From Nitrospinaceae bacterium (GTDB lineage Bacteria > Nitrospinota > Nitrospinia > Nitrospinales > VA-1), in the NCBI GenBank assembly GCA_029261475.1, contig JAJDBG010000018.1:1-63413 (forward strand): a stretch of DNA of 63,413 nt, in the 5' to 3' direction. Positions 5,581 to 29,183 of this stretch are shown here, piece by piece. The notes under the pieces were generated by a model. That model had not been told where the DNA came from and made no database searches. It saw nothing but the letters and a program-made list of their open reading frames with translations. The position numbers and the translations under genes were made by a program. Position 1 is the stretch's first letter; each line of letters begins with the position of its first letter.

Positions 5581-5625
5581 TATAGGCTATAATAAACAAT
5601 AACTTACAAAGGCACGATTCAACAT

Positions 5626-9400: not shown

Positions 9401-11147
9401 GAAGCTCTAGTTTTTCCAAATATTGCAGATTGCCTATTGAAGATGGAATCGAGCCTTCGAATTCATTTAACCACAGTTGCAGTATTCTTAAATTTGTCAG
9501 ACCCTCAATTTTAGAAGGAATTTCGCCGATAAACTGATTACTTTCCAAATATATCTTTTCCAATTCTATTAATTTACAGATATACGAAAGGATTGGCCCA
9601 GAGAGTTGATTATTATTTAGGTTCAAAATTTGTAACTTAATAAGTGAAACAATTCTATCCGGAATTACGCCAGTTAGATTATTTTGACCTAACTCTAACC
9701 TTATTAATTCGGACAGATTTCCAATTTCAGGCGGTATTGGTCCAACTAGGTTGTTGTCGGATAATTTAATTTCCGTAATCCGTTCACCGGAGACGGTAAT
9801 TCCGTACCAGGTTGCTATTGAATCCTCAGATAACCAATTTCCGCTGCTATCCCAATCTGCACCATTGGTACTATTATACAAAGCTACTAAAGCAAGAGAG
9901 TCTTGCTGAAACGCTGGAAGCTCAACTGTTACATGAATAGGTCGGCTGAAAAGTACTAAGTCGGTTGCTATGGTGTTAGAAATTTGACATATATAAGTGC
10001 CGATATCAGAATAATCCACATGTTCTTTGGAATATATGTCTTTTGTTGCTCCGGGAATTTGATTTCCATCATGATACCATTGATATTGATTATTTATACC
10101 CCCAACAGTGACTAAAATTGTTAAACTTGAATCGGTTTTCACGACTATATCTTGTTCGGTTCCAACTCTGTCCTGAGGAGCGTAGACAAAAGCAGGTATA
10201 TTAATATTAGGCTCTATATCTTCAAAAGTGAACTTGTTCTCTTGGATATACAAAGAAACTAATCTTGGTAAAGAGAAACCAGGTAATTCTGTAAATTGAT
10301 TTGAGTGAATATCGAATGACCCCAAATTGTTGAGATTACCGATTTCTGGGGGAATAGAACCAAGAAAAATATTATCGCCTAAATCCAAAATATTTAGATT
10401 GCTAAGATTTCCGATTTCTGGGGGAATAGAACCAGAGAGATTATTAGAGCTTAAATCCAACCATGCTAATCTATTCAGATTATAGAATTCGGGGGGAATT
10501 GATCCAGTAAGTTGATTATTGTTAATGGTTAACACTTGTAATTTCAGTAAACTGCCAATCGCTGGTGAAATTACTCCTGAAAATTGATTGGAACCAAGAA
10601 GTAAATTAGTCAATTGAGCTAGAAAAGCAATTTCAAATGGAATCGAAGCAGAAAGATTATTAGACGATAGATCTAAATGAGTTAAATTGCTTAGATTACC
10701 AATTTCTGAGGGAATAGAACCAGAAAGATTATTAGACTCTAAATCCAACCCCTCTAAGTTACTTAGATTTCCGATTTCTGGAGGAATAGAACCAACTAAT
10801 ACGTTTTCATATAATACTATTTCAATAACACGTTCATCAAAAATAGTAATTCCATACCATGTTTCAAGAGGTTCATTAGTCAGCCAGTTAGTTTTGATTT
10901 TCCAAGTTGGACCATTAGTACTATCATACAAAGCAACCAGCGCCAAAGAATCTGTTTGGCGAGATAAGTCTGCGTTTGTTTCCCCTATTGTCAAAAAAAC
11001 ATTAGTATTCACATTTCCAGAATCAGCCTCTGTAAAGGTTGTTTGAGCTTGAAGGAGGGCATTAAAAAGAAAACAAACCCCAAAAAGTACAAACAACTTC
11101 TTAGTACTTTTTTTTATAAGAACACCTTTCATTTCGTAACCCTTCAA
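6453..11147 (-). CDS. Giant secreted leucine-rich-repeat / Ig-like surface protein with T9SS-type C-terminal sorting domain
   Basis: 1564 aa with a signal peptide. A supermodule is duplicated: cap DSLALVALY(D/N)STNG...TWYGIT, then 24-residue LRRs of plant type (LxxLxLxxNxLSGxIPxEIGNLxNL), then FTFEDIEPNIN, then an Ig-like NQYQWY...GTY(I/F)C. Beta-rich domains follow, and the C-terminus reads NYPNPFNLNTTIPIEIP...GVYIYRI...MVLLK. Confidence 0.9.
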   Translation of the reverse strand: MKGYEMKGVLIKKSTKKLFVLFGVCFLFNALLQAQTTFTEADSGNVNTNVFLTIGETNADLSRQTDSLALVALYDSTNGPTWKIKTNWLTNEPLETWYGITIFDERVIEIVLYENVLVGSIPPEIGNLSNLEGLDLESNNLSGSIPSEIGNLSNLTHLDLSSNNLSASIPFEIAFLAQLTNLLLGSNQFSGVISPAIGSLLKLQVLTINNNQLTGSIPPEFYNLNRLAWLDLSSNNLSGSIPPEIGNLSNLNILDLGDNIFLGSIPPEIGNLNNLGSFDIHSNQFTELPGFSLPRLVSLYIQENKFTFEDIEPNINIPAFVYAPQDRVGTEQDIVVKTDSSLTILVTVGGINNQYQWYHDGNQIPGATKDIYSKEHVDYSDIGTYICQISNTIATDLVLFSRPIHVTVELPAFQQDSLALVALYNSTNGADWDSSGNWLSEDSIATWYGITVSGERITEIKLSDNNLVGPIPPEIGNLSELIRLELGQNNLTGVIPDRIVSLIKLQILNLNNNQLSGPILSYICKLIELEKIYLESNQFIGEIPSKIEGLTNLRILQLWLNEFEGSIPSSIGNLQYLEKLELQSNNLSGAIPESIGNLNNLEWLDISGNRIVGVVPGEIGSLTDLEFLKLSNNLLSGALPETIGSLDDLFILDLSKNQLAGVIPTQIKDLINLSTLNISNNQFKDIPELELLTTLHILEMQNNEFTFEDIEPNINLPDSVIYWPQDSVGTRLDTTVIVGERIGLLVLVGGENNQYQWYKNDQKIIDSTKSSFTIKNADFSNMGTYFCKITNTVATKLTLISRPVNVTVREARPEIAINPDTLNFGYVFLEDSSIKIVTISNVGEDILSVDSVRIAGENSDQFSIDKGGEPFSIARGGNPHIIEIKFLPQSIGEKSASLNIFSNDFDESQTDVELIAIGIIAPPVISVEPDSIDFGIFAVPFDTTISLTISNEGAEALNIDRAEFLGQGSTLFSISNGQLPIIILPDEAHLMGIHLAVSTVDNIDATFRIFSNDPVKEEFNVSLMGSSLFISTDSISNKGQKIATLHGTMNPGGNTLGILFEYGNTLSYGNEIQANQSTASGIEDVSVNAKLHKLIPDTYYYFRMLAILNNDTIRGNAQTFKTLEPYDSTYTLVHTYSYPEKNKTSDYDPIEYQIIGLPGASNQPVNELISGIHGEDWQLYGDNGNFSDDHLVAYERNKDYKFFVGKAFWLIHKGNFIIENEIVNTAPLNADEEVSIPLQSGWNLISNPFNKKIAWSKIVEMNSNSLIPLWTFDKSFDTTNNFEPFKGYYFENSTNLDSLKIPYRLLFEENGNAQVVDPAIWRIHVRYSSGSLVDETVSFGIALDSQKGIDQFDFRKPRAAIDYPSVYFYHQNQNGSYSAFATDIRPQFEQSETWEIGTKTQTGISSQLSFLGIENIPQSLEIYLFVESGGDSINLRQQANYNFIPLTSKYQFTIVAGTETAVQEKLSQLLPEQFMLGNNYPNPFNLNTTIPIEIPKKSDISLEIFNILGKRINILFSGIIEHGKYSFNWNGKDHNNHSVASGVYIYRITSRQGFIANHKMVLLK

Positions 11148-11178: not shown

Positions 11179-12249
11179 TTATTGTGGTGGTGGAGGATAA
11201 GTGTCTGCAGTAGATGGTTCAAGTAAAATCGTCATGATAATCCCAGTTGCTAAACCAGCGGCTATATAGACTCTCCCATCCTTATAGAATTTATACTTTT
11301 TTTCCCTAAGCTCAATTTCAAGTTTTTGTAAATCATCACTGTTTATCTCTACTCTTTTTTTGTATTTCTCGTATCCATCTTTTTCAATTTCAATCAAATA
11401 CTCGCCTGGTTTAACATAAATATGTAAGTTACTAAAACCTATCTTTACACCATCTAATTTTACAATTGCATTTTCTGGTTGAGTTTCAACAGTTAAGCGG
11501 GCAAAACCATACCCGAATGGCAAGTTTTTTTCATCAAACCATTTCTTTATCTTATTAAGAGATATTCCGATACCGCCATTTAAACCACTGCCCTCAACTA
11601 TAACACCTACAATTTCATGTGGTGTAATTAAAGGTGCCCCTGACAAACCTTCTGTAATTCGCAGTGTTTCAACATCGATTGTTTCCTCAAATTCATTTAT
11701 TGAAATACCACCCGAGGAAGCATCAAGAGTTACGTCCCAGTTCTTATGAGGATTAACAGTCCATACTTTTTCGTTGTCATACGACGATTTTTCCACATTT
11801 TCAACCAACTGATTTTTTTTCCAATATAGCTTATTTGGTTTTTTAGCAGTTATAATAGCCCAATCCGAATTTCTAGTCTTTCCATCATAAGCTGAATGTT
11901 CTATTGAAATACAATCAGTTACTTCTATGATGTTATAAAAAGAGATTTTTATACAATCATTAAACTTAATATCTGGTTTGTTACATGCCTCTATCACATG
12001 CCCTGCTGTTGCAATATATAAAATACTATCTTTCTCACCAATTATTAGTCCAGAACCTTCTTTGTTACTCTCAGTATTTTTTATTTTTACAACATTGTCA
12101 CGGAGAGCTTTGGCAAGTTCTCTACCATCTAACTCTCGCGCTGCCGGGGCATTTAAACTAGCTGCACAACTAAATATACTAATAGAGAGTATCATAGTTA
12201 TCCATGCAAGAAGAATATGTGTTAAACTAGCCACTTGTAATGCTTTCAT
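11179..12249 (-). CDS. Trypsin-like serine protease fused to a PEGA domain and C-terminal TM anchor
   Basis: Catalytic triad context: ATAGHVI (His), DWAIITA (Asp), GLSGAPLI (Ser). PEGA-like VETQPENAIVKLDGVKIG...GEYLIEIEKDGYEKY. Lipoprotein-like ISIFSC. I prefer the ATG at 12249, which forms an ATGA overlap with the upstream stop, over the track start at 12294. Confidence 0.75.
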   Translation of the reverse strand: MKALQVASLTHILLAWITMILSISIFSCAASLNAPAARELDGRELAKALRDNVVKIKNTESNKEGSGLIIGEKDSILYIATAGHVIEACNKPDIKFNDCIKISFYNIIEVTDCISIEHSAYDGKTRNSDWAIITAKKPNKLYWKKNQLVENVEKSSYDNEKVWTVNPHKNWDVTLDASSGGISINEFEETIDVETLRITEGLSGAPLITPHEIVGVIVEGSGLNGGIGISLNKIKKWFDEKNLPFGYGFARLTVETQPENAIVKLDGVKIGFSNLHIYVKPGEYLIEIEKDGYEKYKKRVEINSDDLQKLEIELREKKYKFYKDGRVYIAAGLATGIIMTILLEPSTADTYPPPPQ

Positions 12250-13181
12250 TGCTTCTCTGTCATAAGCTTTTTCAGCCCCCAAAAGAAAGGCCATAATGCA
12301 ATAATTATAGTTAATAAAAGCTTTAAAGTCTCGTTATAGTAAAAATATTGAAGAAGAGATGGACGCAGATCTTTCTCAAAATTCTCTGGGCCTACCATTA
12401 GCTTTCCTACAGTTCCAACAAAAAGGAAACGAAGCTTATAATTTCCATCCTGATAAATTGCTACTTTTTCACTCTTCACCTTTCCAAGTAATAAATGATC
12501 TTTGTCATATAACTGAATAATTAAAGGGATATTATGTAATCTTATTGTACCGTTCTGAATTGTAGATTTAAATATTGATGATTTCTTTTCTTCAAAAAAG
12601 CTTACGGTGTTAATGGATAAACCTTGTAACTGAAAGTCATTGACGCCTTCAAATTTTATATAAGAAGGCACCATTCTCAAATCGTCCGCCCTAAAATAAA
12701 TATCTTCAGGAATTGTGAAGTGTTTGTAAACAGAATTTCTATTTACCATGTAGGTTGAACTATCTGCCAATGAAATAACGCTATTGAAATTACTGCCTTT
12801 AACAAAAAATTCAACTCTATTTTTATTTAAACGAACACTTAATTCCCCTTTATTATTCATGGAGATTTTTTTTAGAGAGATCCTCTTGCTTGCTGCTTCA
12901 AATTGTGAACTTTTATCTTGACTTGAATCTAAAACCCCTGAAAATGGAGACCTTACTTCATCGAGATATTTAATCGCTATTCTTTTTGCAGACAATATAT
13001 CATTGCTAGTAAAATCTTGCTCCAAGTTCAATGTCAGGTAATCACATGTAAGGTCTATAGTAACGCCAGTACTGTTAAGTCTGATAAATAAGAGTACACA
13101 TGCTATCATTACGCAGATTAATCCAAAGATCAATCTTACTTTTAAATCAAGAATATTTTTATATAACGTTTTTATTGTCAT
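12246..13181 (-). CDS. Hypothetical membrane protein (N- and C-terminal TM helices)
   Basis: 311-aa ORF with ATGA-type 4-nt overlaps to both neighbours. No recognisable motif. Confidence 0.6.
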   Translation of the reverse strand: MTIKTLYKNILDLKVRLIFGLICVMIACVLLFIRLNSTGVTIDLTCDYLTLNLEQDFTSNDILSAKRIAIKYLDEVRSPFSGVLDSSQDKSSQFEAASKRISLKKISMNNKGELSVRLNKNRVEFFVKGSNFNSVISLADSSTYMVNRNSVYKHFTIPEDIYFRADDLRMVPSYIKFEGVNDFQLQGLSINTVSFFEEKKSSIFKSTIQNGTIRLHNIPLIIQLYDKDHLLLGKVKSEKVAIYQDGNYKLRFLFVGTVGKLMVGPENFEKDLRPSLLQYFYYNETLKLLLTIIIALWPFFWGLKKLMTEKQ

Positions 13182-14120: not shown

Positions 14121-14238
14121 AATTGGTATACATTTGTATGGCTATAAGGGACGATTCAAATGATGTTAGGAGAAATGTCCTATATCTCCCATTTCAATAT
14201 AAATTCATGGATAATTACATGCAACGAAAAAATGGAGG
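14121..14238 (+). repeat. Intergenic module, copy 1 (partner at 22025-22176)
   Basis: Blocks shared in the same order and orientation: AATTGGTATACAT, GATGATG(T/C)TAGG, AGAAATGTC(C/T)TAT(A/G)TCTCCCATTTCA, TATAAATTC, AATTACATGCAAC(G/T)AAAAAATG. Confidence 0.7.
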
Positions 14239-14489: not shown

Positions 14490-15047
14490 TCAATTAAATT
14501 GGATAGCGATATATATCACCAATAATGCAATTAGTGGAAAAAATGATATTACAAAAAGCTTCAGAGCTTTTCTCATGTATTCATACATCTTTCGGTACAA
14601 ATTATACGTTCCCCACATCTCCATAATAGCAAAGGATAGTTCAGATTCTTTTTCAATAGAATTGATAGAATCAAGTAACTGATTTGGTGTTTTAAATGTT
14701 CTTATTGTATCTCTGGCATTGTAATAAAGCCTTTCTGAGCCATCTTGGGATAAACTTATCTCTTCTCCAATCGGCCTCCAAATGCTGGCAATTGCATTAA
14801 GGCACCATACTATTGATATTAAGAGGAAAACAATTGTCATAGAAACGAAAAGAATATAGAGAAGCATCTCTATCAAAGTCAATTGATTGAGTTTATTAAG
14901 TGATTTGTCCAAAATGAATAGAACTAAAGTTATAATAACTGCATCAGCGCTCAAAATAATTGCCGCTCTGTTTGATGTTGAACCACGAAGAGTATCATGA
15001 CGTATTATTAGCCATCGACAAAGATCAATTTTTTCATCAATATTCAT
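14490..15047 (-). CDS. Hypothetical small integral membrane protein (three predicted TM helices)
   Basis: 185-aa ORF. Hydrophobic stretches AAIILSADAVIITLVLFIL, LLYILFVSMTIVFLLISIVWCL, LFVISFFPLIALLVIYIAIQF. No catalytic motif. Confidence 0.55.
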   Translation of the reverse strand: MNIDEKIDLCRWLIIRHDTLRGSTSNRAAIILSADAVIITLVLFILDKSLNKLNQLTLIEMLLYILFVSMTIVFLLISIVWCLNAIASIWRPIGEEISLSQDGSERLYYNARDTIRTFKTPNQLLDSINSIEKESELSFAIMEMWGTYNLYRKMYEYMRKALKLFVISFFPLIALLVIYIAIQFN

Positions 15048-16539: not shown

Positions 16540-18666
16540 TTACTCTGTTGCATTAAAAATGTCTGAAGTGAATAGAGTAAGTAAACGTTCAATTGACAAC
16601 TCATCCTCCAATCCATTAAGCAAAATCTCGCTAATCGTGTTAACTCCGCGGCTAACAAATCGCATACTCAACAAGTACATCGTAATTGCGCGCTCAACGT
16701 TTTTAGGGAATAGAATTTCACAAATTGAAAAAGCGTGCCGAACTGTAATAAGCCATAGCTGAATCAATCCTACAGTAGTATTTTTTACGTCATTTCCAAC
16801 AAACTTGGATAAAACATCACTGTAGTCACGAAGGCTAACTTCTGCTGCTACAAAAAGGTAACGCCATGCCTCATTTGTTACTGGCGCATCTATGGTAACG
16901 ATTTGAGAACCACTTATTCCACCCAGATCGCTCAACTTGTTGACAACATCTGACCTAACTTGTTTCAGTCGTAATATCCGGCCTGAAGTTGCACTAGCTT
17001 GGAACGCGTATCTATATGCTAGTCCATACGCACATGAACAAGAAAGCATAAGCTTAGCAACATCATACGCGGGATCATAAGCTACGTTCTTTATAGCCAA
17101 TTCGAATTCATTCTTTGAGCAAATCTCTCCTATGGGCTCATGCAGTTTCAGTATATATTCTGGATCAAAGGCGATTTCTTTAGGATCTATCGAGATAACG
17201 AGAGGATCCTCGGGAACGCTAGCGTCGATTAGAAAATTTCCAAAATGAGCGTCTCCATGTGATCGACCACGAATGAAGGGGGATTCTATTTTGTCTTTTT
17301 CGTCGAGTTTAGCGAGAGCTTTACTAATTTTAGTGAGTTCCTTTGTTACATTACTACAATTGGTTTTACTTTTATACTTACCCCACAAAAGATTTATTTC
17401 AAAATCGGTTTCATGGTTCTGATCCATGCTATTGAAAATCCATCTCATGCCCTGTACACTATCAGTCACTTCTTTGGGATCAAACACATCAATTCCACGC
17501 TCAAGCTTGATCGGAATTCCAGCTTTGATTCTTTCAATTTTACTCAGAATGTTTTCACAAGCCGAACCGCTATGATAAATTGCTAGTGCTAAACCTGCAG
17601 ATAAGTATGCTCTTGTCTTAGTCGAACTCATCGGTTCCAAACTGGGCCCCCAATAAATGCTTTTCATGTGAGCAAAGCTCGATCGTACAAGTGAAGAAAC
17701 TTCGTAATCTCTAAGACCGCTAGTGAAACTAAGCACATCGAGCAATGAAGACAAGGTAAATCTGGGCATTCTATACCAAGCAAAAGCAACATCTCTGTCA
17801 GCTTCACTTGGAGAATTAGTCAAGTCCGGGTCTTCTCTTTCGATACGAGGAACGCTATGGCCGTTAGTTTTATTCAGCTCGCGCAAAATCTCTAATTGTT
17901 GTTGTATGTCCCTGATCTCTCCATATTTGATAATGCTCCCTTTGACAGCCTGACGCAGTGCTTTTTGATAATAACGTTCCTTTTCATAGAACAGAGTCAA
18001 TGTCGCGAAACTACTCGTTCTGGCGGCCTGAAAAAGTGCGTCCGCAATGACCTCTATTTTTTCCTCAGTAAGAAAAAACCCCACCTGTAATAGTTCCAAT
18101 CCTCTCACTCCAGAGTTTTCTTTTTCTGTGACACGATAATCGGGCTTCAAAAAAAAATATTTTTGACCAGAGATTTGAGTCTCACTTCTTAATTCATCTA
18201 TCAAGCGATTAATGTTCGGATCGAGGCCAGGATGAGTATTGATAACAGCGTTTGTTGATTGCTTCACCGATTTAAGGGTTCCGTTGGAATATAGTCGTTG
18301 TGCTTTGACGACTTTCCCTGCATCGTCGATATGGAGCACCAGAAAGTAGTCATTCGTCTTTGATTCTTCAAGTGTTCCGTAAATTGTGGCAACAAAGCCC
18401 GCCTTGCTTAGACTAATCGGGAATTTATCACGTATTAAATCCAATAGAGATCCAGCATCCTGCAAAATTACACTTTGAAGACTTTTTAAGTCTAGGGTTG
18501 AAACAGGAGCATAGAAAAGATCCGAATGAAGGTCAACTGTTGTAAGAAACATCGTTCCACTTGGAAAGGTAACTGAATCTCGAATGACGTCAAACAATCT
18601 AATTTCAATTTCTCTACCCCACACAGATGAAATTTGGGGTAGCGATTCACGAGTGTTTCTATCCAT
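16540..18666 (-). CDS. Large protein with C-terminal APH/choline-kinase-fold phosphotransferase domain and an uncharacterised ~430-aa N-terminal region
   Basis: 708 aa. HGDAHFGNFLID (catalytic loop), ISIDPK (metal-binding Asp), AYDPAYDVAKL (compare the GDPxxDLA motif of APH-family kinases). Confidence 0.55.
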   Translation of the reverse strand: MDRNTRESLPQISSVWGREIEIRLFDVIRDSVTFPSGTMFLTTVDLHSDLFYAPVSTLDLKSLQSVILQDAGSLLDLIRDKFPISLSKAGFVATIYGTLEESKTNDYFLVLHIDDAGKVVKAQRLYSNGTLKSVKQSTNAVINTHPGLDPNINRLIDELRSETQISGQKYFFLKPDYRVTEKENSGVRGLELLQVGFFLTEEKIEVIADALFQAARTSSFATLTLFYEKERYYQKALRQAVKGSIIKYGEIRDIQQQLEILRELNKTNGHSVPRIEREDPDLTNSPSEADRDVAFAWYRMPRFTLSSLLDVLSFTSGLRDYEVSSLVRSSFAHMKSIYWGPSLEPMSSTKTRAYLSAGLALAIYHSGSACENILSKIERIKAGIPIKLERGIDVFDPKEVTDSVQGMRWIFNSMDQNHETDFEINLLWGKYKSKTNCSNVTKELTKISKALAKLDEKDKIESPFIRGRSHGDAHFGNFLIDASVPEDPLVISIDPKEIAFDPEYILKLHEPIGEICSKNEFELAIKNVAYDPAYDVAKLMLSCSCAYGLAYRYAFQASATSGRILRLKQVRSDVVNKLSDLGGISGSQIVTIDAPVTNEAWRYLFVAAEVSLRDYSDVLSKFVGNDVKNTTVGLIQLWLITVRHAFSICEILFPKNVERAITMYLLSMRFVSRGVNTISEILLNGLEDELSIERLLTLFTSDIFNATE

Positions 18667-18682
18667 TGACAGTACCTGTAGG

Positions 18683-19705
18683 TTAGCTGATTATATTTTC
18701 AAGCACAGATTTAGTTGCAAACTTATGGATTAACTCAGCCGATATGTTAACCTGATTCGGTTCTCCAATATTTTGTCTCATATTTGAAGTATATACAAAA
18801 CCATTCTCGGGACAAGGGACTTTGAAGCCCTTAGGCAGATTTTCCCCGAAGAGATTTTTTACATAGTCTGCTCCAGCACGATTTGATGGAAATCCCAAGA
18901 ACTCTCTAACTTTTTTTGCCCAGTCGCTAATCGGCAACTCTGGTTCACCGAAGTCTTCTAGTTCTTGAGCCATAACGTCGATAAGAATTTCAGCACAGAA
19001 TTTTAGCAATTTTTTATCATCACAAAAATGTTGCACAGGCTTGGAACGAGCGTATGCCCAGCTAAATAGATTTGAATTTATCTTAGTCTGGAGATCGTGA
19101 TGAACATCTGCGTAATCATCTGCAAGCTGTAAAAGGAATAATGCACGAATTGCTAGAAGTTCCCTAGCATACATTTCGTTCTCATTAAACTGAGTCTTTA
19201 GGCAATCAAAAGGCAATGAGAGTAGTGCACATTTCCCATAAGCAGTCTTGAAAGAAGGTTGTACACCAGATTGCAAGAGATCGTACGTGTAGGAGATTGC
19301 AGACAACCGTCTTTTCAGCATTGAAACCGCCACTTCATGATCATTGGTTAAATCGCATAAAAGTTCTAAACAAAAGTCCGAGAGGATTTCTCGAATTTCT
19401 CGTAGTGTCGATGGACTCAACCCGATATCATCGTGATCCCTGATTGCGTCATCAACTACAATGAAGCCTCGAGCAACTATGACCAATCGAGACAACATAG
19501 TCTCAACTACCGATGTCAATTCACCTCTTTTAAAAAAAAAGAAGCTGAGAAAAGTACCCAAACAGCGATCAACACCTATCAAATGATCTAGACATTTACC
19601 GTTTATTTGGAGATTCTCACATTTCCGGCCTAAGGCGGCGTTGAACCAGTTTTTAAGATCGGATTGATGTGCATGCATCATGGTCAGTTTGGGCAAATCT
19701 CTCAT
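18683..19705 (-). CDS. All-alpha protein resembling class I isoprenoid synthases (squalene/phytoene-synthase-like)
   Basis: 340 aa. Two Asp-rich motifs about 115 residues apart: IVVDDAIRDHDD and LQLADDYADVHHDL. 4-nt ATGA overlap with the DedA-like gene. Confidence 0.4.
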   Translation of the reverse strand: MRDLPKLTMMHAHQSDLKNWFNAALGRKCENLQINGKCLDHLIGVDRCLGTFLSFFFFKRGELTSVVETMLSRLVIVARGFIVVDDAIRDHDDIGLSPSTLREIREILSDFCLELLCDLTNDHEVAVSMLKRRLSAISYTYDLLQSGVQPSFKTAYGKCALLSLPFDCLKTQFNENEMYARELLAIRALFLLQLADDYADVHHDLQTKINSNLFSWAYARSKPVQHFCDDKKLLKFCAEILIDVMAQELEDFGEPELPISDWAKKVREFLGFPSNRAGADYVKNLFGENLPKGFKVPCPENGFVYTSNMRQNIGEPNQVNISAELIHKFATKSVLENIIS

Positions 19706-20391
19706 TGTTTTTTTTCGTTAGTGGTTGCAACCGGCTTACGGCGCGCTAAATAAAATAAAATTGGAAACCCGGCAAGAGTTGAAATAAATAGTACCCAGAA
19801 ATAGGGATCTTTGGTATCAATACCGCTGCCCATATAAGAAAGAGATAAGCTACCTCCGACATGTCCCAAGAGATTTGCAATTAAGAACCAGTTAAAACGC
19901 ATTTTCGAAAGTCCGACCAAATAACTAATTTCGTCGTCTGGAAATAGTGGCAAAAAGTACACGAGAAACAAGACATCCGCTCGGTTTGAAACAAACTTAT
20001 CGTACTTGGCGATAGTTTGTGAGGGGACAAACTTACGAACAATTGGTGAGCCAATAGATCTACTCAAGCCAAAAGCAATCAAGTGACCAATAACCCTACC
20101 TATATAATTGTAAATTCCACCCAGAATTGGACCATAAAGAAAACCGCCCATGTACCCTACGCTATAGTGTGAAAGAGGCGCTACAACAACTTGGAGAATC
20201 TGAAGAGCAATGAAAAGAATAGGTGCCCAGTTATCGTATTTACTCGAAAATTCGCGAATTTGTTCTTGCGTTGAGAAAAAGCTGATCGGGTCGATTAGAC
20301 TCAATATGATGCCAATTATTGGTATTACGGTTATCAAAACCCAAAATATGAGACCGATATATCTGCTTGAATTTTTGATTGTTTCATTCAT
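19702..20391 (-). CDS. DedA / TVP38-TMEM64 family membrane protein
   Basis: 229 aa, polytopic. Core VAPLSHYSVGYMGGFLYGPILGGIYNYIGRVIGHLIAFGLSRSIG is typical of SNARE-associated/DedA-superfamily proteins. Confidence 0.75.
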   Translation of the reverse strand: MNETIKNSSRYIGLIFWVLITVIPIIGIILSLIDPISFFSTQEQIREFSSKYDNWAPILFIALQILQVVVAPLSHYSVGYMGGFLYGPILGGIYNYIGRVIGHLIAFGLSRSIGSPIVRKFVPSQTIAKYDKFVSNRADVLFLVYFLPLFPDDEISYLVGLSKMRFNWFLIANLLGHVGGSLSLSYMGSGIDTKDPYFWVLFISTLAGFPILFYLARRKPVATTNEKKQ

Positions 20392-20415
20392 AAGTTTGTC
20401 CCTTTAAGTACTATA

Positions 20416-21324
20416 TTAAACTGAAGATAATTCTAAAAAGCGCAAAACTGTGGCGGTGGTAAATATTCTCTTAACGTCAGCGTATAACGGACCTGTGGAT
20501 ATCCTTTTCTTTACCCACTGTTCTGTACTATCCGGCTCTACATATTTTAATATGGGCCGCGCTTTCCAGGAGCCATCAGGTTTTTGGCTAGAAATAAGAT
20601 AACTGAGCACGTGCATTTTTGCGTCATTATCGCCTATATATATTGCCGCGAGTCCTGATAATGCGGCTTCAAAGGGTCCCCTGTACGAGAGGGTATCTCT
20701 TATCCAATTTATTATCAAAAGTTCCTTCGGGTGTTTGAACTTACCATATTGGAGTGCCCATGAGCAAACAAAGTTTGAGTAATGGTGGGTTCTCCACCAA
20801 AATGATGGACAGGTACCAAATTTCAAAGTTTCATCGGAAAGAAAGTCAAGAAACGATGTGAAACGAGCTGGATCTTCCAACGCAATGTTAGTAACTGCAC
20901 TAACCTCGTGATGAATTTGTGACCAGGAGTGTGAGTCGGATTTATCGTTGAAAGTCTTGAATAGACCGGGTTTAACTTCAAAGCAGATTAGCCGTTCATA
21001 ACAATCAGCGGGTACCTGGATATGATTTGAGGTAAGGGCGAGGATCGCCAGGGCGGTCGAATCGCAGTCATCAGATACAATTTCATTGTAACCCCATCCA
21101 CCATTCTTTCGCTTTGCAGACAAAAGAAAGTCGATTGCCTTTTGTATAGCAATTGATAGATTCTTGTCTTTATACTTTAACGAGCCTAGAGTTAAGAGAA
21201 CATAAGCTGTTACCCACGATGTAGATTCACCAACATCAAGCCTGAAATCACGCCACGCTCCATCACCTGATTGAAGTTTTGATAAGAACCTGATAGCATC
21301 GTTGACTGCCTTGTTCGTGTCCAT
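20416..21324 (-). CDS. Prenyltransferase / squalene-oxidase (QW) repeat protein, terpene-cyclase-like alpha-alpha barrel
   Basis: 302 aa. QW-type repeats QSGDGAWRDF, RKNGGWGYN, QKPDGSWKA. The Asp-rich SDDCDSTALAILAL recalls the DxDDTA motif of class II cyclases. Confidence 0.7.
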   Translation of the reverse strand: MDTNKAVNDAIRFLSKLQSGDGAWRDFRLDVGESTSWVTAYVLLTLGSLKYKDKNLSIAIQKAIDFLLSAKRKNGGWGYNEIVSDDCDSTALAILALTSNHIQVPADCYERLICFEVKPGLFKTFNDKSDSHSWSQIHHEVSAVTNIALEDPARFTSFLDFLSDETLKFGTCPSFWWRTHHYSNFVCSWALQYGKFKHPKELLIINWIRDTLSYRGPFEAALSGLAAIYIGDNDAKMHVLSYLISSQKPDGSWKARPILKYVEPDSTEQWVKKRISTGPLYADVKRIFTTATVLRFLELSSV

Positions 21325-22024
21325 GTAATCCTTATATTATCGACTATTGTTAAAAAAAATAATAAAGCGTTATGTTTTCCCCTAGTGGTTGTTGTGCAAC
21401 TACTACCTCAACGGTAAATAGTATTTAATAATAATCTGATTCTAAGTAAATCGTCAGGAAGTGTGAATTATAACCATTGTGTAACATTAACGCAAGTCAA
21501 AAAATGCTCAGTTTGTTTTGGACTTTGCATATTAGCCACTATCGTTAAACTTTCCCACTTTACCCATGTCCACATTGCCTAATCTGTTGGGCGAAGCCAC
21601 GGCCTCATGCATTGTCCTAGACGTTTCTGATTAGACTTGTTTCTTAACGTAACTATTCCCAAGTGTTAAAGCTCATAAAATCTCTATGGATATTTAATAA
21701 GGGTTTCACTTGATGTTAACTCCCATTTCTTCAACTATATAACCTGATCAGCTTTTAACCTTTTTCATTCCAGAAATACCTAATCATGAAAAAACTATCG
21801 CGGAGCGGTTTCGTTCAACATAGTATTGAATGGAACAAATTCTGCATTTCATGAAGAATTTTATTGTATGAAAAACCAAACCTCACGTAATGAATATTGG
21901 GCTAATATAGTCATATTTTTGTTTATCAAACAAACACGAGGTTTACATAAAAAGGAAATCTTAACGGACTTTATCGAAATTTGATTCTCTCTTAAAATGA
22001 TTTTCTTCGCTCAGAAACTGAATA

Positions 22025-22176
22025 AATTGGTATACATATGCTTGTCATTCGGGAGCCCCATGAGGGAGGGTTCAGATGATGCTAGGTATCTTATCCCAAG
22101 AGAAATGTCTTATGTCTCCCATTTCATTATGTTAATATAAATTCTTGCCCAATTACATGCAACTAAAAAATGAATG
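22025..22176 (+). repeat. Intergenic module, copy 2 (partner at 14121-14238)
   Basis: See the feature at 14121-14238. This copy has two extra internal insertions. Confidence 0.7.
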
Positions 22177-22296: not shown

Positions 22297-23301
22297 TTAA
22301 TAAGGCAATCTTGAAACGCCGGCAGCCAGATGATCAGGAGCAAGATGCGCATACATTTCAGTAATCCTCATTTCAGAATGACCCAAAAGCTCCTTAACCG
22401 TGTACAAATCAACGCCATTCATAACCAAATGGCTGGCAAACGTATGACGAAGGGTATGCACGGAAAAATTCAAATTTAGTCCGGCTCTCTTGATGTAGTT
22501 CTTGAACTTATGTGTCACGAAGTGACGCTTATGATTGAAAGGTTTTTCGCAGCTAGCTTCTTTGCTATTAAGGACTTCCAAAAGTCGGTCGTTGATAGGT
22601 ATCTCTCTGTCCTTTCTGCCTTTTGTTTTGGTTATTTTAATTACCCTTCTAACCAGATCAATATTAGCCCAGGTTAAACTGAGTGCTTCCCCCCTTCGGC
22701 ACCCTGTATGCAAGTAGAAAAGTACCAAGTCTTTAAAATTAGAATTATCTATGACCGCCATAAGTTTCTCGACATCTTCAAGCGTTAGATATTCTGGAAG
22801 ATTGTTGCCATCTAACTTGTACTGCTTGACGTTACTGAAAGGGCTTTCCTTAAGATATCCGTAAACCTGTACTCCGAAATTGAATGCTGATTTTAGATGG
22901 CGGATTTCCATATTAACCGACGTCTTGCTAACTCTTTCCTGCCGGTGAATTTTGTAGTCCTCAATGTTTTTTCTAGTTATCTTTTTTAGCGGCATATCAC
23001 CGAGGAAGTCCAACAGGTAATTAAGGAATCGCTCATTGAGAGCATAAGTTGCTTTACCATGTTCGGCCTGAGAATATTTAAGGTAGGCCTCTATGAGTTT
23101 GCTTAGGCGAACAGCTTTTTTCTTATGAGATAAATCCAGCTTTCCGAGGTTTAGGTCGACTTCAATTTTTGCTTTCATCTGCTCGGCGACCCGGCGACTT
23201 CCCGTTTTGGTATTGAACCAATGGCGTTGGCCTTCGTTATCGTAGTAATCGATAATCCAGACTAAATCACCTTGCCTTTTTCGTTTACGTAAACACGCCA
23301 A
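22297..23301 (-). CDS. Tyrosine recombinase / phage-type integrase
   Basis: 334 aa. C-terminal catalytic region HTLRHTFASHLVMNGVDLYTVKELLGHSEMRITEMYAHL, with R in GCRRGEAL. Confidence 0.95.
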   Translation of the reverse strand: MACLRKRKRQGDLVWIIDYYDNEGQRHWFNTKTGSRRVAEQMKAKIEVDLNLGKLDLSHKKKAVRLSKLIEAYLKYSQAEHGKATYALNERFLNYLLDFLGDMPLKKITRKNIEDYKIHRQERVSKTSVNMEIRHLKSAFNFGVQVYGYLKESPFSNVKQYKLDGNNLPEYLTLEDVEKLMAVIDNSNFKDLVLFYLHTGCRRGEALSLTWANIDLVRRVIKITKTKGRKDREIPINDRLLEVLNSKEASCEKPFNHKRHFVTHKFKNYIKRAGLNLNFSVHTLRHTFASHLVMNGVDLYTVKELLGHSEMRITEMYAHLAPDHLAAGVSRLPY

Positions 23302-23382: not shown

Positions 23383-23751
23383 TCACCCATCACGGCTATC
23401 CAGGATTTCATTGGCAGTTGGGAATAGAACAGGAAATTTCTTAAGGTCACTTCGGTGAATACGCACCAAGCCTCCGACTTTGTAGTAGCGCAGCCGTCTT
23501 TCGTACAGCCATTTCCTTACTGTTTTTGACGAGGTCTGGAAATGCACCGCTGCATCATCGACCGTGAGCCATTCCGTTTTCCCCACCTGGCTGTTTAGGT
23601 CATTCTGTTTTCTACTTGGACTATTCATTTCATTGCCAATACGCCATAGGTTGTGCACATCAGAACCCTTACCTCGACTTGATTTCTTGAGATTCATGAG
23701 TGTGATGCCTCGTTCGCTCGAACATTTCAGTTGTTCTACTTTACTGCTCAC
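23383..23751 (-). CDS. Excisionase-family (MerR-like) HTH DNA-binding protein; true start probably internal
   Basis: WLTVDDAAVHFQTSSKTVRKWLYERRLRYYKVGGLVRIHRSDL. The long form overlaps the relaxase 3-prime end by 11 nt. Internal Met codons (MNLKK, MNSPS) are alternative starts. Confidence 0.75.
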   Translation of the reverse strand: MSSKVEQLKCSSERGITLMNLKKSSRGKGSDVHNLWRIGNEMNSPSRKQNDLNSQVGKTEWLTVDDAAVHFQTSSKTVRKWLYERRLRYYKVGGLVRIHRSDLKKFPVLFPTANEILDSRDG

Positions 23752-26431
23752 CCATCTGGCGCCTCTGTAAACTCAATTCAAGGGCCATTTCTTTTTGAGG
23801 GGTTAATGTTTTCGGGGCATAATCCAACGTCGACGTCTTCTGCTGTTCAACCTGTGCCTGTTCAGTAAACTGTGCTTTATCATTTGTGTAAATATGCAAG
23901 TCTTCCCGCGCTCGGCTGGCTGCAACATAGAGCGAGTTATAATTGACACCCTTTCTGGTGTCGGCTTGATAGATGACAGCCTGTGCTTCCTGGCTTTGTG
24001 CTTTGAAGTTTGTCACCGCATAGCCATGGTCAATGTAGGCGTAGTCCTTAGTCTTAATATTCACGACTTTCTTGCCGTCGGTTAAGACCGACATAGTACC
24101 GTCTCTGTTAGCCAACACCTTTCCCATGCGGCCGTTTTCAACACCGACTTTCTTGTCCGACTTCAGAAAAATGACTTTGTCTCCTTTCGAGAACTCCTGC
24201 TTTTGGCGGGTATAAGCGCTAAGATGATGCCCTTGCTTGCTTAAATCAATTTCGACTTTCTTCCGTATTTTTTTGGAAGTGATGCGGGCGGTTGCTCTGT
24301 TCTTGGCATGATTGACTGACAAAATTTCTCCGTAACTGCCTTTTCCGAAATCCTTTATAGGTTGCGATAAGAAAAACCCATCCCCTTTCTCATAGCTGAA
24401 GCTCATGTTGCGTTCACCAAGGGTTATATTCTTGGGATGGTTGGTGTAGACATCATGACCTCTCCTGCTCAAACGGCGGCCGGCCTTCAGGCTTTCTCTG
24501 ATATCTTGATTGAGTTGATGCCGTTCTTCGTTGGACTCAGTGATTACCAACGTATCCTGCTTTTTGGACAGGTCGTGATATTTGTCAACCACGGCTTTAA
24601 ATCTCGCCTCCGAATCCGGGATTTCAAGAAATTGTCCATCGCTATCAAATGAATTCAGCGCCTGATCGACATCCTTATCAGCTATAGACCGAATAGCCTT
24701 TTTAAGGAATGGGTCTTTTTGCCGGATATTCTCCTGCATGCGCACCATTTTCGTAAGCTGTTTTTCCTGAACTTTATTGAAAATCGCTCCGGCAGCGATA
24801 GACAATTTTTGTTTGTTGTCACCTATTAATAAAATAGAGTCTTTGCTTTTAGTGCGTTGTAAAAGTTCTTGGAATTTCCGTGAACCCAGAAGTGAGGCTT
24901 CGTCGACCACCAATAGCTGGCGGCGGGTATTTTTTTGATTCTTAATGAGAAAGGCGTCCAGAGTGCTGGCATTTACCAGGCCTTTGGCGCGTAGTGCCTC
25001 AGCAGCCAGGGATGTTGGAGATACCGGTACCACGTCGTAACCGGCGCGGCTATAGTTTCGGGCAACGATTTCCAACATGGTGGTCTTGCCGGTACCAGCA
25101 TCGCCCTGCACCAGACTAACCTGGTCACGGCTTCCTAATATATGCCGGATGCTTTTCTGCTGGTCAGATGTCAGTCTCTTTTTTCCCGGCATGAGCATAA
25201 ACCCCTGACGTGCAAGCAGGGATTTCTGTGCGGATTCGCCTTTGGCAAGATGATTGACGATAGCAGTTTCAATCTTCTGTATTTCCTCGGTTGTAAATGA
25301 TTGTCCGTTGTCCAGATTGATTATATTTTTTGACACCACCATATCCTTTTCAATGTCGGCAACGGTTTTATCGCCAATAGAGTATTTCAATCCGAGGGTA
25401 AGAATATCCTCCTTTGATAGCACGGACTCTTCTTGCGTCAAGACATCCGCGGCCAAATCAGCATGATTGGTTTGCTTTTGGGAAATGTTTTTTTGCCGCA
25501 GGACTTTTTTGAGCAATTTATTTTTGTCATAGCCCAGCTTTTGCCACTTGGCCTGCCAGTGCGATTGTAATTCTTTCGCAGTCAGGTTTACTTTGCTCTG
25601 GCGCGAGCGTTCAGCAGCTAAGCCCTTAAGCACGCTTTCGCGGGCTGCCGGAAATAGCTTGCGCAACTCCGGTAGCGTTTTGCGTATTTGTTCGGAGCGG
25701 GTTGAATAGGCATCGATGAGCTCCTGTGGCACACCTTTTATCTCGAATAAACCTTTTGGTTTTGGCGCAATCGCCAAGCCTAAGTTTTTTAGTTTGGCGG
25801 CAAGTTGATTTCGATAAATCTGGCCAACAAACATTTTTTGAAAATGAAAGTTCTCGTTGGAATAGGCACGCCACTCGCCATCGGGACGTTTGGTTATATT
25901 GGGACAGACGGCATGACAATGTAATTGTGGGTCTAGCGCTCTGGAAGTGTTTTCGGTAAAGATGGCAAAAGCCAGGTTACCGGTATTAAACGTTTGTGTT
26001 TCATGATTGATAGTAATACGTGCCTGAGCATAGTTTTTTTCGAAGTAACTAAGTGCTTCCTGTACAGCTGTTTGATGCGCGTTATAGATATTTTCTTTAA
26101 GATTAGGTGCGATGAGTTCAGCTAATAAACTTACGGACTTTGGAGCAGAGAAAGTGTAATCGATACCGGCACGACGCTCCTTATTAACACCCGGCTCAAT
26201 TAACTGTTTTCTACCTTTTGGTGACCAGCCGTTAAGGAGATTCTCAAACTCTCGTTTGCCCACAGCTTCACCTTCAAGATGAAGATGCTTACTTGCTTTG
26301 CCAAACCAGACACCAGGTTTTTCCAGGTAGTAATCCGTTTGTTCCTGATTCTTTGCAGAAACAGATTGCTCATTCAGCACTTGGTAATAGGCTGAGGCAC
26401 CACTGGCAGTGATATAATTAAGGCTAAGCAT
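23741..26431 (-). CDS. TrwC/TraI-type (MOBF-like) conjugative relaxase fused to RecD/TraA-like helicase
   Basis: 896 aa. N-terminus MLSLNYI...SAYY...DYY, FSAPKSVS, histidine triad DPQLHCHAVCPN, AAA_30-type Walker A GDAGTGKTTM, Walker B LLVVDEASL. Confidence 0.95.
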   Translation of the reverse strand: MLSLNYITASGASAYYQVLNEQSVSAKNQEQTDYYLEKPGVWFGKASKHLHLEGEAVGKREFENLLNGWSPKGRKQLIEPGVNKERRAGIDYTFSAPKSVSLLAELIAPNLKENIYNAHQTAVQEALSYFEKNYAQARITINHETQTFNTGNLAFAIFTENTSRALDPQLHCHAVCPNITKRPDGEWRAYSNENFHFQKMFVGQIYRNQLAAKLKNLGLAIAPKPKGLFEIKGVPQELIDAYSTRSEQIRKTLPELRKLFPAARESVLKGLAAERSRQSKVNLTAKELQSHWQAKWQKLGYDKNKLLKKVLRQKNISQKQTNHADLAADVLTQEESVLSKEDILTLGLKYSIGDKTVADIEKDMVVSKNIINLDNGQSFTTEEIQKIETAIVNHLAKGESAQKSLLARQGFMLMPGKKRLTSDQQKSIRHILGSRDQVSLVQGDAGTGKTTMLEIVARNYSRAGYDVVPVSPTSLAAEALRAKGLVNASTLDAFLIKNQKNTRRQLLVVDEASLLGSRKFQELLQRTKSKDSILLIGDNKQKLSIAAGAIFNKVQEKQLTKMVRMQENIRQKDPFLKKAIRSIADKDVDQALNSFDSDGQFLEIPDSEARFKAVVDKYHDLSKKQDTLVITESNEERHQLNQDIRESLKAGRRLSRRGHDVYTNHPKNITLGERNMSFSYEKGDGFFLSQPIKDFGKGSYGEILSVNHAKNRATARITSKKIRKKVEIDLSKQGHHLSAYTRQKQEFSKGDKVIFLKSDKKVGVENGRMGKVLANRDGTMSVLTDGKKVVNIKTKDYAYIDHGYAVTNFKAQSQEAQAVIYQADTRKGVNYNSLYVAASRAREDLHIYTNDKAQFTEQAQVEQQKTSTLDYAPKTLTPQKEMALELSLQRRQMGEQ

Positions 26432-27557: not shown

Positions 27558-29183
27558 CTAGAAGTCGAAGTCCGTGATAACGGTATCACCAGGGGTTGAA
27601 GCTGTTATGTCCTCTGGTGCTTTTTGTGTTGCTTTCGTCGAAGCTTCTGGTTGTTCATTCACAATTGTATTAGTCCGCATGACAAATCTTTTATCCGCAA
27701 CAAATGGTTTGGCGCGGTCGGGATAATGTTTGTACGGCACGCGGGACTCAGTCAGTGGATAACTCGACAATTTTATGTAGCATGAAAGATTTGGCAATGA
27801 CTGGATTTGGGAAGGCAGTAACAGTTTGTCAGTGATGCGCTGGTTGCGGTATGATTCCGTATCACGATAATCTCTGGTACCACTTGAGAACGTGCTCTCC
27901 ATGACTTCGGCTTCTTTCTCACCAAAAAGACGGCTAAAATATTCCGCGCTATCCGAATCGTTCATGCGAAAAATGATATAATTGTTGCACTGATTGATAA
28001 TGGAGTTTGACATGTCTTTGCCATAGATAGTATCAATCCTAGCTTTGTCCTGAATCCCTATCCAGATGGAACAACCTTTTGACCTGCCCAGGGTTAATAT
28101 ATCTGTGATTGCGTTTAAGGGGTGCAGTGACCCGAACTCATCGAGCATGATAAAAATTCTACGGTCGGGATTATCGCGCAGGGATAGTATCTCTTCAGCA
28201 AAGGCGTTAATGAAAAGGGTAAAAATGCCTCGCAAAGTCTCGCGCTGTTTTGCCACAGAATTGAGAAAAATAAAGCCGCCTTTGCTGTCGTCCCGCAACC
28301 ATTCGCGTAACGACAAGCTCTGCTTGTTCTCGCCTTTGACCATGTAGCGAAATATTTTAGCGTTCTGCATCAATGTTGATATAACACCTTGGGTCTGTAC
28401 GCTATCGTGATTCTCAATGGTTGCGGCGGCATTGCTGCCAACTTCTTTCAGCATCTTGTGTAAAGTTGGAATGGATTGAGTCAGAGATTTCCACAATGCA
28501 TCATTGTTGGCAATTTTATGCACAAAACAATAACGCAGGATACCCGATAAAACATCGCGTGCTGCCTGGCAGAAGAACTTCTCTTGTCCCCTGCCGCCAG
28601 GTATTACACTAGCAGCTACCGTATCAAAATCCGGCTCGCTATCGATAACGTCAAACACGTCAAAATACAAAGACCGCTCATCGAAAGGATTAAAGATAAA
28701 ATCCGTGTCGGGATTATAGAAGCGAGCAACGATTTCCCCTTGTTTGCCCCCATGAAACAGACATTTCGCTTTTCTTGCTCTGAGTTGGGTAATAGTGCCA
28801 CAGATAGCCTGGCTTTTACCGGTGCCGGTCGCACCGCCGATGAAGACGTGTGTGGTCTCGGATTTATAAGGCAGTATGATAGTTTCTGAAAGCGGTAGAC
28901 TGCCTGGCGGCAGTTTCTCAGCCAGTTCTTCTTCGGCAATCATGACTGAGCCCCGGCGGGTGCGCTCGGTAAACTGGCGTTTGCTGAGTTTGTGAAAAAA
29001 GAAAATGATTGCCGGCCAAAGCAAATAAACGGCAAAACTCAATTTGAAAATACTGCCGTGACGGAAAAGCAAGATAATTATCGCCACTTGTGCAATACAT
29101 AAACCTTTTAGAATGGCCAGGTGCATCTTGATATTTTTGCGTACCATATTAAAAGTTAGTTCAAAGGATTTATGGGTACTCAT
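27558..29183 (-). CDS. Type IV secretion coupling protein (TraD/VirD4-like ATPase)
   Basis: 541 aa. N-terminal TM helices, Walker A GGATGTGKSQAI, Walker B IFIMLDEFGSL. Confidence 0.8.
   Translation of the reverse strand: MSTHKSFELTFNMVRKNIKMHLAILKGLCIAQVAIIILLFRHGSIFKLSFAVYLLWPAIIFFFHKLSKRQFTERTRRGSVMIAEEELAEKLPPGSLPLSETIILPYKSETTHVFIGGATGTGKSQAICGTITQLRARKAKCLFHGGKQGEIVARFYNPDTDFIFNPFDERSLYFDVFDVIDSEPDFDTVAASVIPGGRGQEKFFCQAARDVLSGILRYCFVHKIANNDALWKSLTQSIPTLHKMLKEVGSNAAATIENHDSVQTQGVISTLMQNAKIFRYMVKGENKQSLSLREWLRDDSKGGFIFLNSVAKQRETLRGIFTLFINAFAEEILSLRDNPDRRIFIMLDEFGSLHPLNAITDILTLGRSKGCSIWIGIQDKARIDTIYGKDMSNSIINQCNNYIIFRMNDSDSAEYFSRLFGEKEAEVMESTFSSGTRDYRDTESYRNQRITDKLLLPSQIQSLPNLSCYIKLSSYPLTESRVPYKHYPDRAKPFVADKRFVMRTNTIVNEQPEASTKATQKAPEDITASTPGDTVITDFDF

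Follow-up and report, generated by a model that had tools for sequence, protein, structure and literature searches.

A four-gene operon of a Nitrospinaceae bacterium as a candidate isoprenoid biosynthesis and translocation pathway

The DNA considered here comprises positions 1 to 63,413 of contig JAJDBG010000018.1 (assembly GCA_029261475.1) from a Nitrospinaceae bacterium, and this whole stretch of 63,413 nt is referred to below as the window. Between positions 16540 and 21324, four co-directional open reading frames (ORFs) are found on the minus strand in the order A, B, C, D, with a gap of 24 nt between A and B, an overlap of 4 nt between the stop of B and the start of C, and a gap of 16 nt between C and D. 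A first-pass annotation made from the sequence had described this layout, and its coordinates and spacings have been reproduced (Table 2). With a confidence somewhat better than even, we propose that the operon encodes an uncharacterised isoprenoid pathway (prenyl-lipid or terpenoid) that combines biosynthesis with translocation. A is a class II terpene cyclase of the monodomain kind, B a membrane protein of the VTT/DedA superfamily, C a member of an unannotated family with the predicted fold of trans-prenyltransferases and class I isoprenoid synthases, and D a representative of a very rare unannotated family with a catalytic loop of the aminoglycoside phosphotransferase (APH)/choline-kinase type. 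The association of these families is conserved in other genomes, where a second architecture built from partly different families also occurs; the substrates, the order of the steps, the product and the biological role are what we infer.

The four proteins and their families

Gene A had been presented as a protein of about half the size of squalene-hopene cyclase (SHC), with three QW-type repeats and a DxDDTA-like acid motif (SDDCDSTALAILAL, found in its translation). The terpene-cyclase-type toroid implied by that description is borne out by an end-to-end profile match to solved monodomain cyclases. Thus, positions 10-310 of the 315 in the A-family profile align to 6ij1, MstE and 8paj at E-values of 4.6e-25 to 1.5e-21, the matches being 4.6e-25 for 6ij1 (a 'Prenylcyclase' of 346 aa), about 5e-23 for MstE (6sbb-6sbg, 367 aa) and 5e-22 for 8paj, and the best structure, 8pak (361 aa), is matched at E 1.3e-25 in three stretches. 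The didomain SHC (631 aa) is matched only partially by the same profile (6e-13), and in Pfam a short match to SQHop_cyclase_C is obtained (7.8e-9, aa 2-80). Against the equivalog models for SHC and oxidosqualene cyclases, A scores 27 bits with TIGR01507 (cut-off 431) and 39.5 bits with TIGR01787 (cut-off 322.7). The operon matches no hopanoid or carotenoid pathway, and hpn or crt genes are lacking nearby.

The acid motif of A reads D86-C-D88-S-T-A in the window, DCDTTA in two other loci (L001 and L010) and EDCDSTS in a third (L012), which keeps D-C-D-S-T; D86, C87, D88, T90 and A91 are invariant in an alignment of three A sequences. The segment GGWGY-x5-D-C-D-[ST]-T-A lies in register with GDADTT of MstE and with DADST of 6ij1 and 8pak, and QW repeats are likewise shared with the solved cyclases. 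Of the three repeats announced for A, two are canonical (FLSKLQSGDGAW and YLISSQKPDGSW) and the third is degenerate. The MstE-like clade contains beta-only cyclases in which DxD replaces DxDD; it extends over many phyla, Bacteroidota included, and has one characterised member (PMC12414744). Judging by its sequence, A is a full-length new member of this known family and not a truncated SHC, since it aligns with that family from end to end, even if at 302 aa it is somewhat shorter than the solved MstE-like cyclases (346-367 aa). The view of A as a half-size oddity with a DxDD-type acid has to be abandoned, the motif being DxD. No transmembrane segment was found in A, and a match to A on a Deinococcus plasmid was discarded on account of its unrelated gene context. 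The MstE cluster is said, in work of Moosmann et al. from 2020, to use a UbiA-type aromatic prenyltransferase; in contrast, UbiA is missing from the operon, where a DedA/VTT protein, the orphan family C and the kinase-like D are found instead.

The assignment of B to the DedA/VTT proteins was confirmed by PF09335 (VTT_dom), which it matches at E 4.7e-19 with 69.5 bits, above the gathering cut-off of 33.9. B is the only membrane protein among the four (hydrophobic segments at residues 8-41, 54-76 and 197-216) and the most conserved of them, with 50-60% identity between loci. DedA-family proteins have been implicated in the flipping of undecaprenyl phosphate (Und-P) (PMC12826051), and B shares the VTT domain and multi-pass topology of UptA and of the VTT-TVP38 scramblase superfamily. 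However, it falls widely short of the UptA equivalog NF052604, with 15.1 bits (E 0.018) for a cut-off of 250, and constitutes a subfamily of its own, genetically locked to family C.

Family C had escaped annotation. C matches nothing in Pfam, NCBIfam or PADLOC, nor any PDB sequence, whether compared singly or as a profile, and in a word-indexed protein search with C alone the query itself was the sole match. Its homologues first surfaced as neighbours of D homologues, and an exhaustive profile search then gave 97 cluster representatives; a 16-sequence profile of C found one locus in genomes, belonging to a metagenome-assembled genome (MAG), and no relatives were found in plasmids or IMG/VR. 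Identity between loci is 23-34%. Across 80 members, G44, R79, D86, D90, Q193, D196, D197, D200 and D204 are invariant, and two motifs about 110 residues apart, R-x3-V-x-D-D-x3-D and Q-x2-D-D-x2-D-x3-D, were present in every member inspected (45/45). In C itself these correspond to R79..D85-D86xxxD90 and Q193xxD196-D197xxD200xxxD204, accompanied by K158-C. The two Asp-rich peptides to which the first-pass annotation had drawn attention, VVDDAIRDHDD and LQLADDYADVHHDL, are both present in the translation and belong to this invariant core. When a structure model of C was submitted to Foldseek, the top 50 matches were all farnesyl diphosphate synthases (FPPS), geranylgeranyl diphosphate synthases (GGPPS) or MoeN5, the moenomycin prenyltransferase, with probabilities of 0.99-1.0 and template modelling (TM) scores of 0.36-0.64. 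From the motifs and the model it is concluded that C would represent a branch of the class I/trans-prenyltransferase fold that is divergent and carries no annotation, as had been suggested from its Asp-rich motifs.

The likeness to trans-isoprenyl diphosphate synthases extends to the spacing of the motifs. In a gap-free HH alignment of 49 columns, which is not itself significant, K158 of C falls on the lysine of the 'KT' motif and LQLxDDFxD on FQVSNDVVD with identical spacing, so that K158 and QxxDDxxD stand in register with KT and FQxxDDxxD. The differences are that the first motif of C is DDxxxD following an invariant Arg, D85-D86...D90 resembling DDxxD with one extra residue, and that the second extends to D-D-x-x-D-x-x-x-D. 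An RRG-type signature for binding isopentenyl diphosphate (IPP) is not evident by eye in C, and chain elongation with IPP is therefore doubtful.

Other class I enzymes also offer parallels. D196, D200 and D204 are spaced 1-5-9, as are the residues of the NSE/DTE triad, and no terpene-synthase match was obtained in Pfam. The class IB terpene synthase motif, DY(F,L,W)IDXXED, shows the same acidic spacing as D196-D-F-x-D200-x-E-E-D204 of C, and in the class IB enzymes BalTS/YtpB and in the terpene synthases of classes ID-IF the class I fold is invisible to sequence models, as it is in C (PMC11234867). C differs from these non-canonical synthases in having no detectable sequence relationship to any solved structure. 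The C35 pathway of Bacillus couples a class I-type enzyme with the SHC-type cyclase SqhC, and the same logic, in which a class II cyclase acts after a class I-type enzyme, would apply to the operon. We know of no DedA or kinase-like partner for the class IB, class ID-IF or C35 systems. SqhC is listed in PMC12414744. A stand-alone member of family C was encountered in an archaeon of the DPANN group (Candidatus Diapherotrites/Iainarchaeum; L016/L017, 8001-9035), in a ribosomal-protein neighbourhood and accompanied by neither B nor D.

D is much rarer. Twelve relatives were found among 5.8e9 proteins, none of them with a Pfam domain, and none in 185,579 GTDB representative genomes, IMG/VR or PLSDB plasmids. 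Direct scans of D against Pfam, NCBIfam, PADLOC and PDB sequences, the last with single sequences and with profiles, yielded no usable match. Full-length homologues are 29-38% identical between loci and conserve an invariant block, H470-G-D472-A-H-F-G-N477-x-L-x-D-A-S-x-P-E ... I-D494, plus D-P-x-Y-D-x-A-K, which includes the peptides HGDAHFGN, IDP and DPAYDVAKL quoted earlier and found in the translation. H470, G471, D472, H474, N477 and D494 are invariant in 13 D sequences and kept in four more distant homologues, and the motifs are retained in homologues at 29-30% identity. The catalytic loop (HGDxHxxN), the downstream metal-binding Asp and DPxYDxA are shared with APH, choline kinase and maltokinase (MaK). 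Pfam APH is weakly matched by 4 of the 13 members (E 0.034-0.78), in the catalytic loop only. The structure model of D has a predicted local distance difference test (pLDDT) of 75, and the best fold matches of the whole chain in Foldseek are maltokinase (4o7o, E 0.024, probability 0.72-0.77) and choline kinase (E 0.5-1.1), with nothing at E <= 0.001 in PDB and BFVD.

In contrast with APH and choline kinase, D is about 2-3 times larger, its N-lobe Lys/Glu pair was not identified, and its N-terminal region of about 430 aa, strongly conserved within the family (e.g. ERERYYxKALRQA and AWYRMPRFT), matches nothing and lacks a known counterpart. D had been described as an APH-fold kinase fusion; the invariant catalytic-loop motif and the weak Foldseek matches favour the kinase part of that label, but no curated kinase model is reached at threshold and, taking into account the N-terminal region, the term 'fusion' is unproven.

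Conserved gene neighbourhoods

Family hidden Markov models were applied to all retrieved loci, which are designated here by L numbers (Table 1). In more than 10 independent loci these families are neighbours, with proteins that are only 25-60% identical, and overlaps of 1-11 nt between start and stop codons recur across many of them. The core B-C-D occurs in 9 independent loci and A in 4, the A proteins being 35-40% identical between loci. D was never found in the loci surveyed without either B and C (type 1) or a polyprenyl synthase, an MFS transporter and a protein of about 334 aa, X (type 2). This arrangement is far beyond chance. The genes do co-localise in other genomes, but what is conserved is the trio B-C-D and not the quartet, A being optional.

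Table 1. Gene orders observed in the window and in related loci
Gene order	Locus
A-B-C-D	Window
A-C-B, then IS21 fragment, then D	L001
B-C-A-D	L010, L012
B-C-D	L005, L011, L015, L018/L019
C-D (locus cut by contig end)	L009
Polyprenyl synthase, MFS, X, D	L002, L003/L004
Polyprenyl synthase, MFS, D, X	L008
B, C, ~250-aa membrane protein	L013, L014
C alone	L016/L017 (archaeal contig)

The polyprenyl synthase of the type-2 loci is a true trans-isoprenyl diphosphate synthase (E 2e-16 to a GGPP synthase). X gave nothing when its own profile was compared with the PDB; with a profile of monodomain cyclases that combines A with MstE, 6ij1 and 8pak, and a database of 780 ORF segments, X is the best non-self match, the X of L008 reaching E 7.7e-6 and carrying DTDDTA and a QW repeat. 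A class II cyclase or cyclase-like protein, A or X, is present in 7 of the 12 D-containing loci. The second architecture holds an enzyme with the prenyl-synthase fold, a transporter, a cyclase-like protein and D, and therefore the same four roles would recur through different families. The possibility that X is a homologue of C was considered and rejected, X being weakly cyclase-like instead.

Several particular features of these loci have to be mentioned. The polyprenyl synthases of L002, L003 and L008 have a second Asp-rich motif that reads N-D-x-x-D (FQVSNDVVD), the canonical form being D-D-x-x-D, and, as judged from this sequence, they may not be ordinary chain-elongating enzymes. In a MAG from the Black Sea (L013, 5031-9630), ispD, ispF and a DedA gene are followed, in this order, by a B-like VTT gene, a C-like gene and a gene for a 246-aa multi-pass membrane protein that has no family match, the B-C pair standing directly downstream of ispD-ispF. 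The grouping of B, C and a membrane protein in L013 and L014 may constitute, within the wider C family, a third type of architecture that lacks D. That partner of about 250 aa had been considered as a shortened kinase half of D, an idea that was rejected because the protein spans the membrane several times and shows no similarity to D. In L009, a class I S-adenosylmethionine-dependent methyltransferase gene (2744-3457) overlaps the stop of D by 4 nt and is likely to encode a locus-specific tailoring enzyme. In L001, a further putative tailoring gene, for a BBE/FAD_binding_4 oxidase (4539-5942), adjoins the cyclase gene, and an IS21 IstB fragment (9033-9665) lies between A-C-B and an inverted D, a position that suggests that the cluster was recently rearranged.

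The proposed pathway and its alternatives

In the pathway that we propose, C would be a soluble, Mg2+-dependent enzyme that uses its two invariant acidic motifs to bind an allylic prenyl diphosphate by the diphosphate group and to ionise this substrate, leading either to prenyl transfer to an acceptor or to a synthase reaction. The D-x-D acid of A would protonate a double bond of the prenyl chain, giving rise to its cyclisation; this tailoring step would be optional, A being absent from about half of the related loci. D would transfer phosphate from ATP to a hydroxyl or phosphate group on the substrate or product, and the task of B would be to carry the amphipathic prenyl(-phosphate) compound into the cytoplasmic membrane, across it or out of it.

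A number of observations weigh against this proposal. The structure model of C was built with AlphaFold from four sequences and is of low confidence (pLDDT 55), its Foldseek E-values lie no lower than 4e-3 to 3e-2, the HH profile comparison of C with genuine polyprenyl synthases is not significant (Prob <1%), and Pfam polyprenyl_synt (PF00348) touches 1 of 80 members, at E 2.9e-4. For D, none of the curated kinase models reaches threshold, and an HH comparison with NPTII, for which the NPTII query was approximate, aligned the loops in the correct register at a Prob of 1.4%. About 60% of D has no recognised fold, and therefore D may act otherwise than, or beyond, phosphoryl transfer. The enzymatic roles of C and D are predictions for every member of both families, the link between X and A is weak beyond the small local database used, and the type-1 operon contains no gene for the supply of prenyl diphosphates.

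Among the competing explanations, the salvage or remodelling of carrier lipids (Und-P or polyprenyl phosphate) deserves attention, even if it is considered improbable. According to it, B would flip polyprenyl phosphate as UptA does, D would phosphorylate polyprenol or polyprenyl phosphate, and C would make or process the diphosphate. The flipping of Und-P by DedA-family proteins (PMC12826051), the weak match of B to the UptA model (E 0.018), the position of B as the most conserved component, always beside C, and the second DedA gene next to ispD and ispF in L013 all agree with such a function. Nevertheless, the UptA score of 15 bits is to be set against a cut-off of 250, and the class II cyclase present as A or X in 7 of the 12 D-containing loci has no place in recycling. 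Undecaprenyl diphosphate synthases are cis-prenyltransferases, with a fold that differs from the one predicted for C. It is the presence of cyclases, together with the lack of a cis-prenyltransferase fold in C, that weakens this explanation, to which the accessory, rare and often mobile nature of the module can be added.

The genomic surroundings raise the question of anti-phage defence or exclusion through isoprenoid chemistry, in which a membrane lipid or small molecule made on infection would mask receptors, collapse the membrane or act as a chemical inhibitor. The operon of the window occupies a repeat-bounded cassette beside the integrase of an integrative conjugative element (ICE), L005 is directly downstream of Hachiman-like genes, L001 lies beside a type I restriction-modification (R-M) system, L012 beside an M78/HTH pair and L009 beside a transposase. 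However, other loci (L015, L018/L019, L002 and L003) are found among housekeeping or metabolic genes, islands of defence genes also gather unrelated cargo, and relatives are lacking on IMG/VR viral contigs. The four proteins gave a single, chance-level match in PADLOC-DB 2.0 (DrmA, E 0.07), and no known defence system matches; a sensor, a nuclease or another typical effector is missing, and all recognisable parts are biosynthetic. Defence as such is thus held to be slightly less probable than the handling of carrier lipids. A related proposal, that B-C-D with or without the cyclase is a mobile system, often carried in defence islands or as ICE cargo, that makes a phosphorylated and sometimes cyclised isoprenoid lipid, inserts or flips it in the membrane and in this way alters the cell surface or blocks phages, is judged unlikely, to the same extent as carrier-lipid salvage. 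The roles that had been listed at the outset (envelope remodelling, receptor masking, signalling and defence) are speculation.

[quoted passage not shown] LanC and terpene cyclases do share a toroid architecture, and the catalytic loop of D is similar to the loop of SalKC, a class III lanthipeptide synthetase, at an E-value of 2.2 that is not significant. In contrast, A is of the MstE/SHC type, with QW repeats and a DxD acid, and not LanC-like; no LANC_like or lyase domain is present, and the leader of the operon holds no convincing precursor-like small ORF. Moreover, the second architecture contains a genuine polyprenyl synthase, and C has a prenyltransferase fold according to its model. The last explanation, that functionally unrelated genes have become neighbours by chance on mobile DNA, could invoke the two families without known function and the variation in gene order between loci. 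It is refuted by the synteny survey, given that the genes adjoin one another in more than 10 independent loci, frequently with an overlap of start and stop codons, and that D keeps the constant company of either B and C or the type-2 trio, and we attach the least probability of all to it.

Returning to the isoprenoid pathway, A and B each add a member to a known family, whereas C and D represent new families with folds that are probably known, and the combination is new. All members of families C and D bear the public name 'hypothetical protein', and a literature search found no system with this combination of genes. Family C would be a previously unrecognised and widely scattered branch of the prenyltransferase/class I fold, with about 97 clusters in bacteria and one DPANN archaeon; the mining of structures has demonstrated that hidden class I-fold enzymes are productive to study (PMC11234867). 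The strict genetic link between a DedA/VTT subfamily and an isoprenoid enzyme provides a handle on the long-standing question of DedA cargo, and the cluster predicts new terpenoid chemistry, in which two enzymes, one a non-canonical enzyme of the class I fold and the other a monodomain class II cyclase, would be combined with a phosphorylation step. If the link with mobile DNA and defence islands were meaningful, lipid chemistry would join the accessory envelope or defence functions. If the cluster were indeed a mobile lipid system, it would constitute an isoprenoid-based mechanism of defence or envelope remodelling and the first DedA/VTT subfamily tied genetically to a dedicated isoprenoid substrate made by an operon partner.

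Genomic setting

The 'repeat modules' mentioned in the first-pass annotation are real. An imperfect direct repeat of about 115-150 nt, with two blocks of 87-93% identity and indels, brackets a cassette of 7.9 kb, and one of its copies is located just 3' of the ICE integrase gene; a third att-like copy was not found within the window. The integrase, which had been placed about 1 kb away, is 972 nt upstream of A. Within the cassette the GC content is 38.8%, compared with 33.9% in its left flank and 44.1% in the conjugative element. These data fit a separately acquired, att-flanked cassette accreted beside an ICE, which is predicted to have arisen by att-site duplication or by accretion of the kind seen in cis-mobilisable elements (CIME-like), and they agree with the suggestion that the module is carried on horizontally acquired DNA in the window. 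After the integrase come genes for a TrwC relaxase and a TrwB coupling protein, and the neighbour is therefore an integrative conjugative element.

Besides the operon, the cassette contains a 295-aa protein with a signal-peptide-like N-terminus and a 185-aa multi-pass membrane protein, neither with a family match nor conserved beside the cluster in other loci. The former had been called porin-like; the gene exists, but the label is unverified because no family is matched. Purine runs resembling Shine-Dalgarno sequences precede A and B, and the leader of the integrase is also Shine-Dalgarno-like; leaders of this kind are unusual for Bacteroidia. No Rfam RNA was found in or around the cassette.

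Table 2. Coordinates of the operon and of other features of the window
Feature	Position	Strand	Basis or remark
Gene A, MstE-type single-domain (beta-only) class II terpene cyclase, 302 aa, soluble	20416-21324	-	Profile match to solved structures
Gene B, VTT/DedA-superfamily (TVP38-like) multi-pass membrane protein, 229 aa	19702-20391	-	PF09335
Gene C, unannotated family, trans-prenyltransferase/class I isoprenoid-synthase fold (predicted), 340 aa	18683-19705	-	Invariant motifs, Foldseek
Gene D, very rare unannotated family, soluble, APH/choline-kinase-type catalytic loop, 708 aa	16540-18666	-	Invariant motif
Sigma-70-like promoter consensus match, weak, ~115 nt upstream of A	21428-21467	-	TTCACA-17-TAGAAT, 10/12; such sites not above shuffled expectation in the region
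'Porin-like' gene, 295 aa	15335-16222
185-aa membrane ORF	14490-15047
Direct repeat, distal copy (att-like), left cassette boundary	14121-14234	.	Repeat comparison
Direct repeat, integrase-proximal copy, right cassette boundary	22025-22172	.	Repeat comparison
Tyrosine integrase, end of the adjacent conjugative element	22297-23301	-	Phage_integrase 6.8e-31
TrwC relaxase	23741-26431
TrwB coupling protein	27558-29183
Second tyrosine integrase	32531-33517
UvrD-like helicase	39175-41247
N6/N4 DNA methylase	43248-46127		Type III R-M-like
ResIII/endonuclease protein	47384-50404		Type III R-M-like
Second TrwB-like gene	55188-56468
DXP-synthase-like gene	60990-62696		DXP_synthase_N 6e-64
LRR/Ig-domain protein, 1564 aa	6453-11147
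Trypsin-like/PEGA-domain protein	11179-12294

The surroundings of the related loci are diverse. In L005 (683-7009), AAA_15, HamA and a 1050-aa DEAD-box helicase, a Hachiman-like set, are immediately upstream of B-C-D, and RNase_T and NYN genes are found downstream. L001 has AAA_15/AAA_21 and GIY-YIG genes as neighbours in addition to its type I R-M system and IS21 fragment, the pair in L012 consists of an M78-peptidase and a helix-turn-helix (HTH) protein, and the transposase of L009 is of the DDE type. L015 and L018/L019, of type 1, and L002 and L003, of type 2, lie among ordinary chromosomal genes.

As for the remainder of the window, the region 22297-58000 is a mosaic of mobile elements (Table 2). 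The gene that resembles synthases of 1-deoxy-D-xylulose 5-phosphate (DXP), the first enzyme of the methylerythritol phosphate (MEP) pathway, is about 40 kb from the operon and probably housekeeping. On the other side of the cassette, the large protein with leucine-rich repeat (LRR) and Ig domains carries a C-terminal sorting domain of the type IX secretion system (T9SS), a feature that would suggest a host of the FCB group, similar to Bacteroidota, and it is followed by the trypsin-like/PEGA-domain protein.

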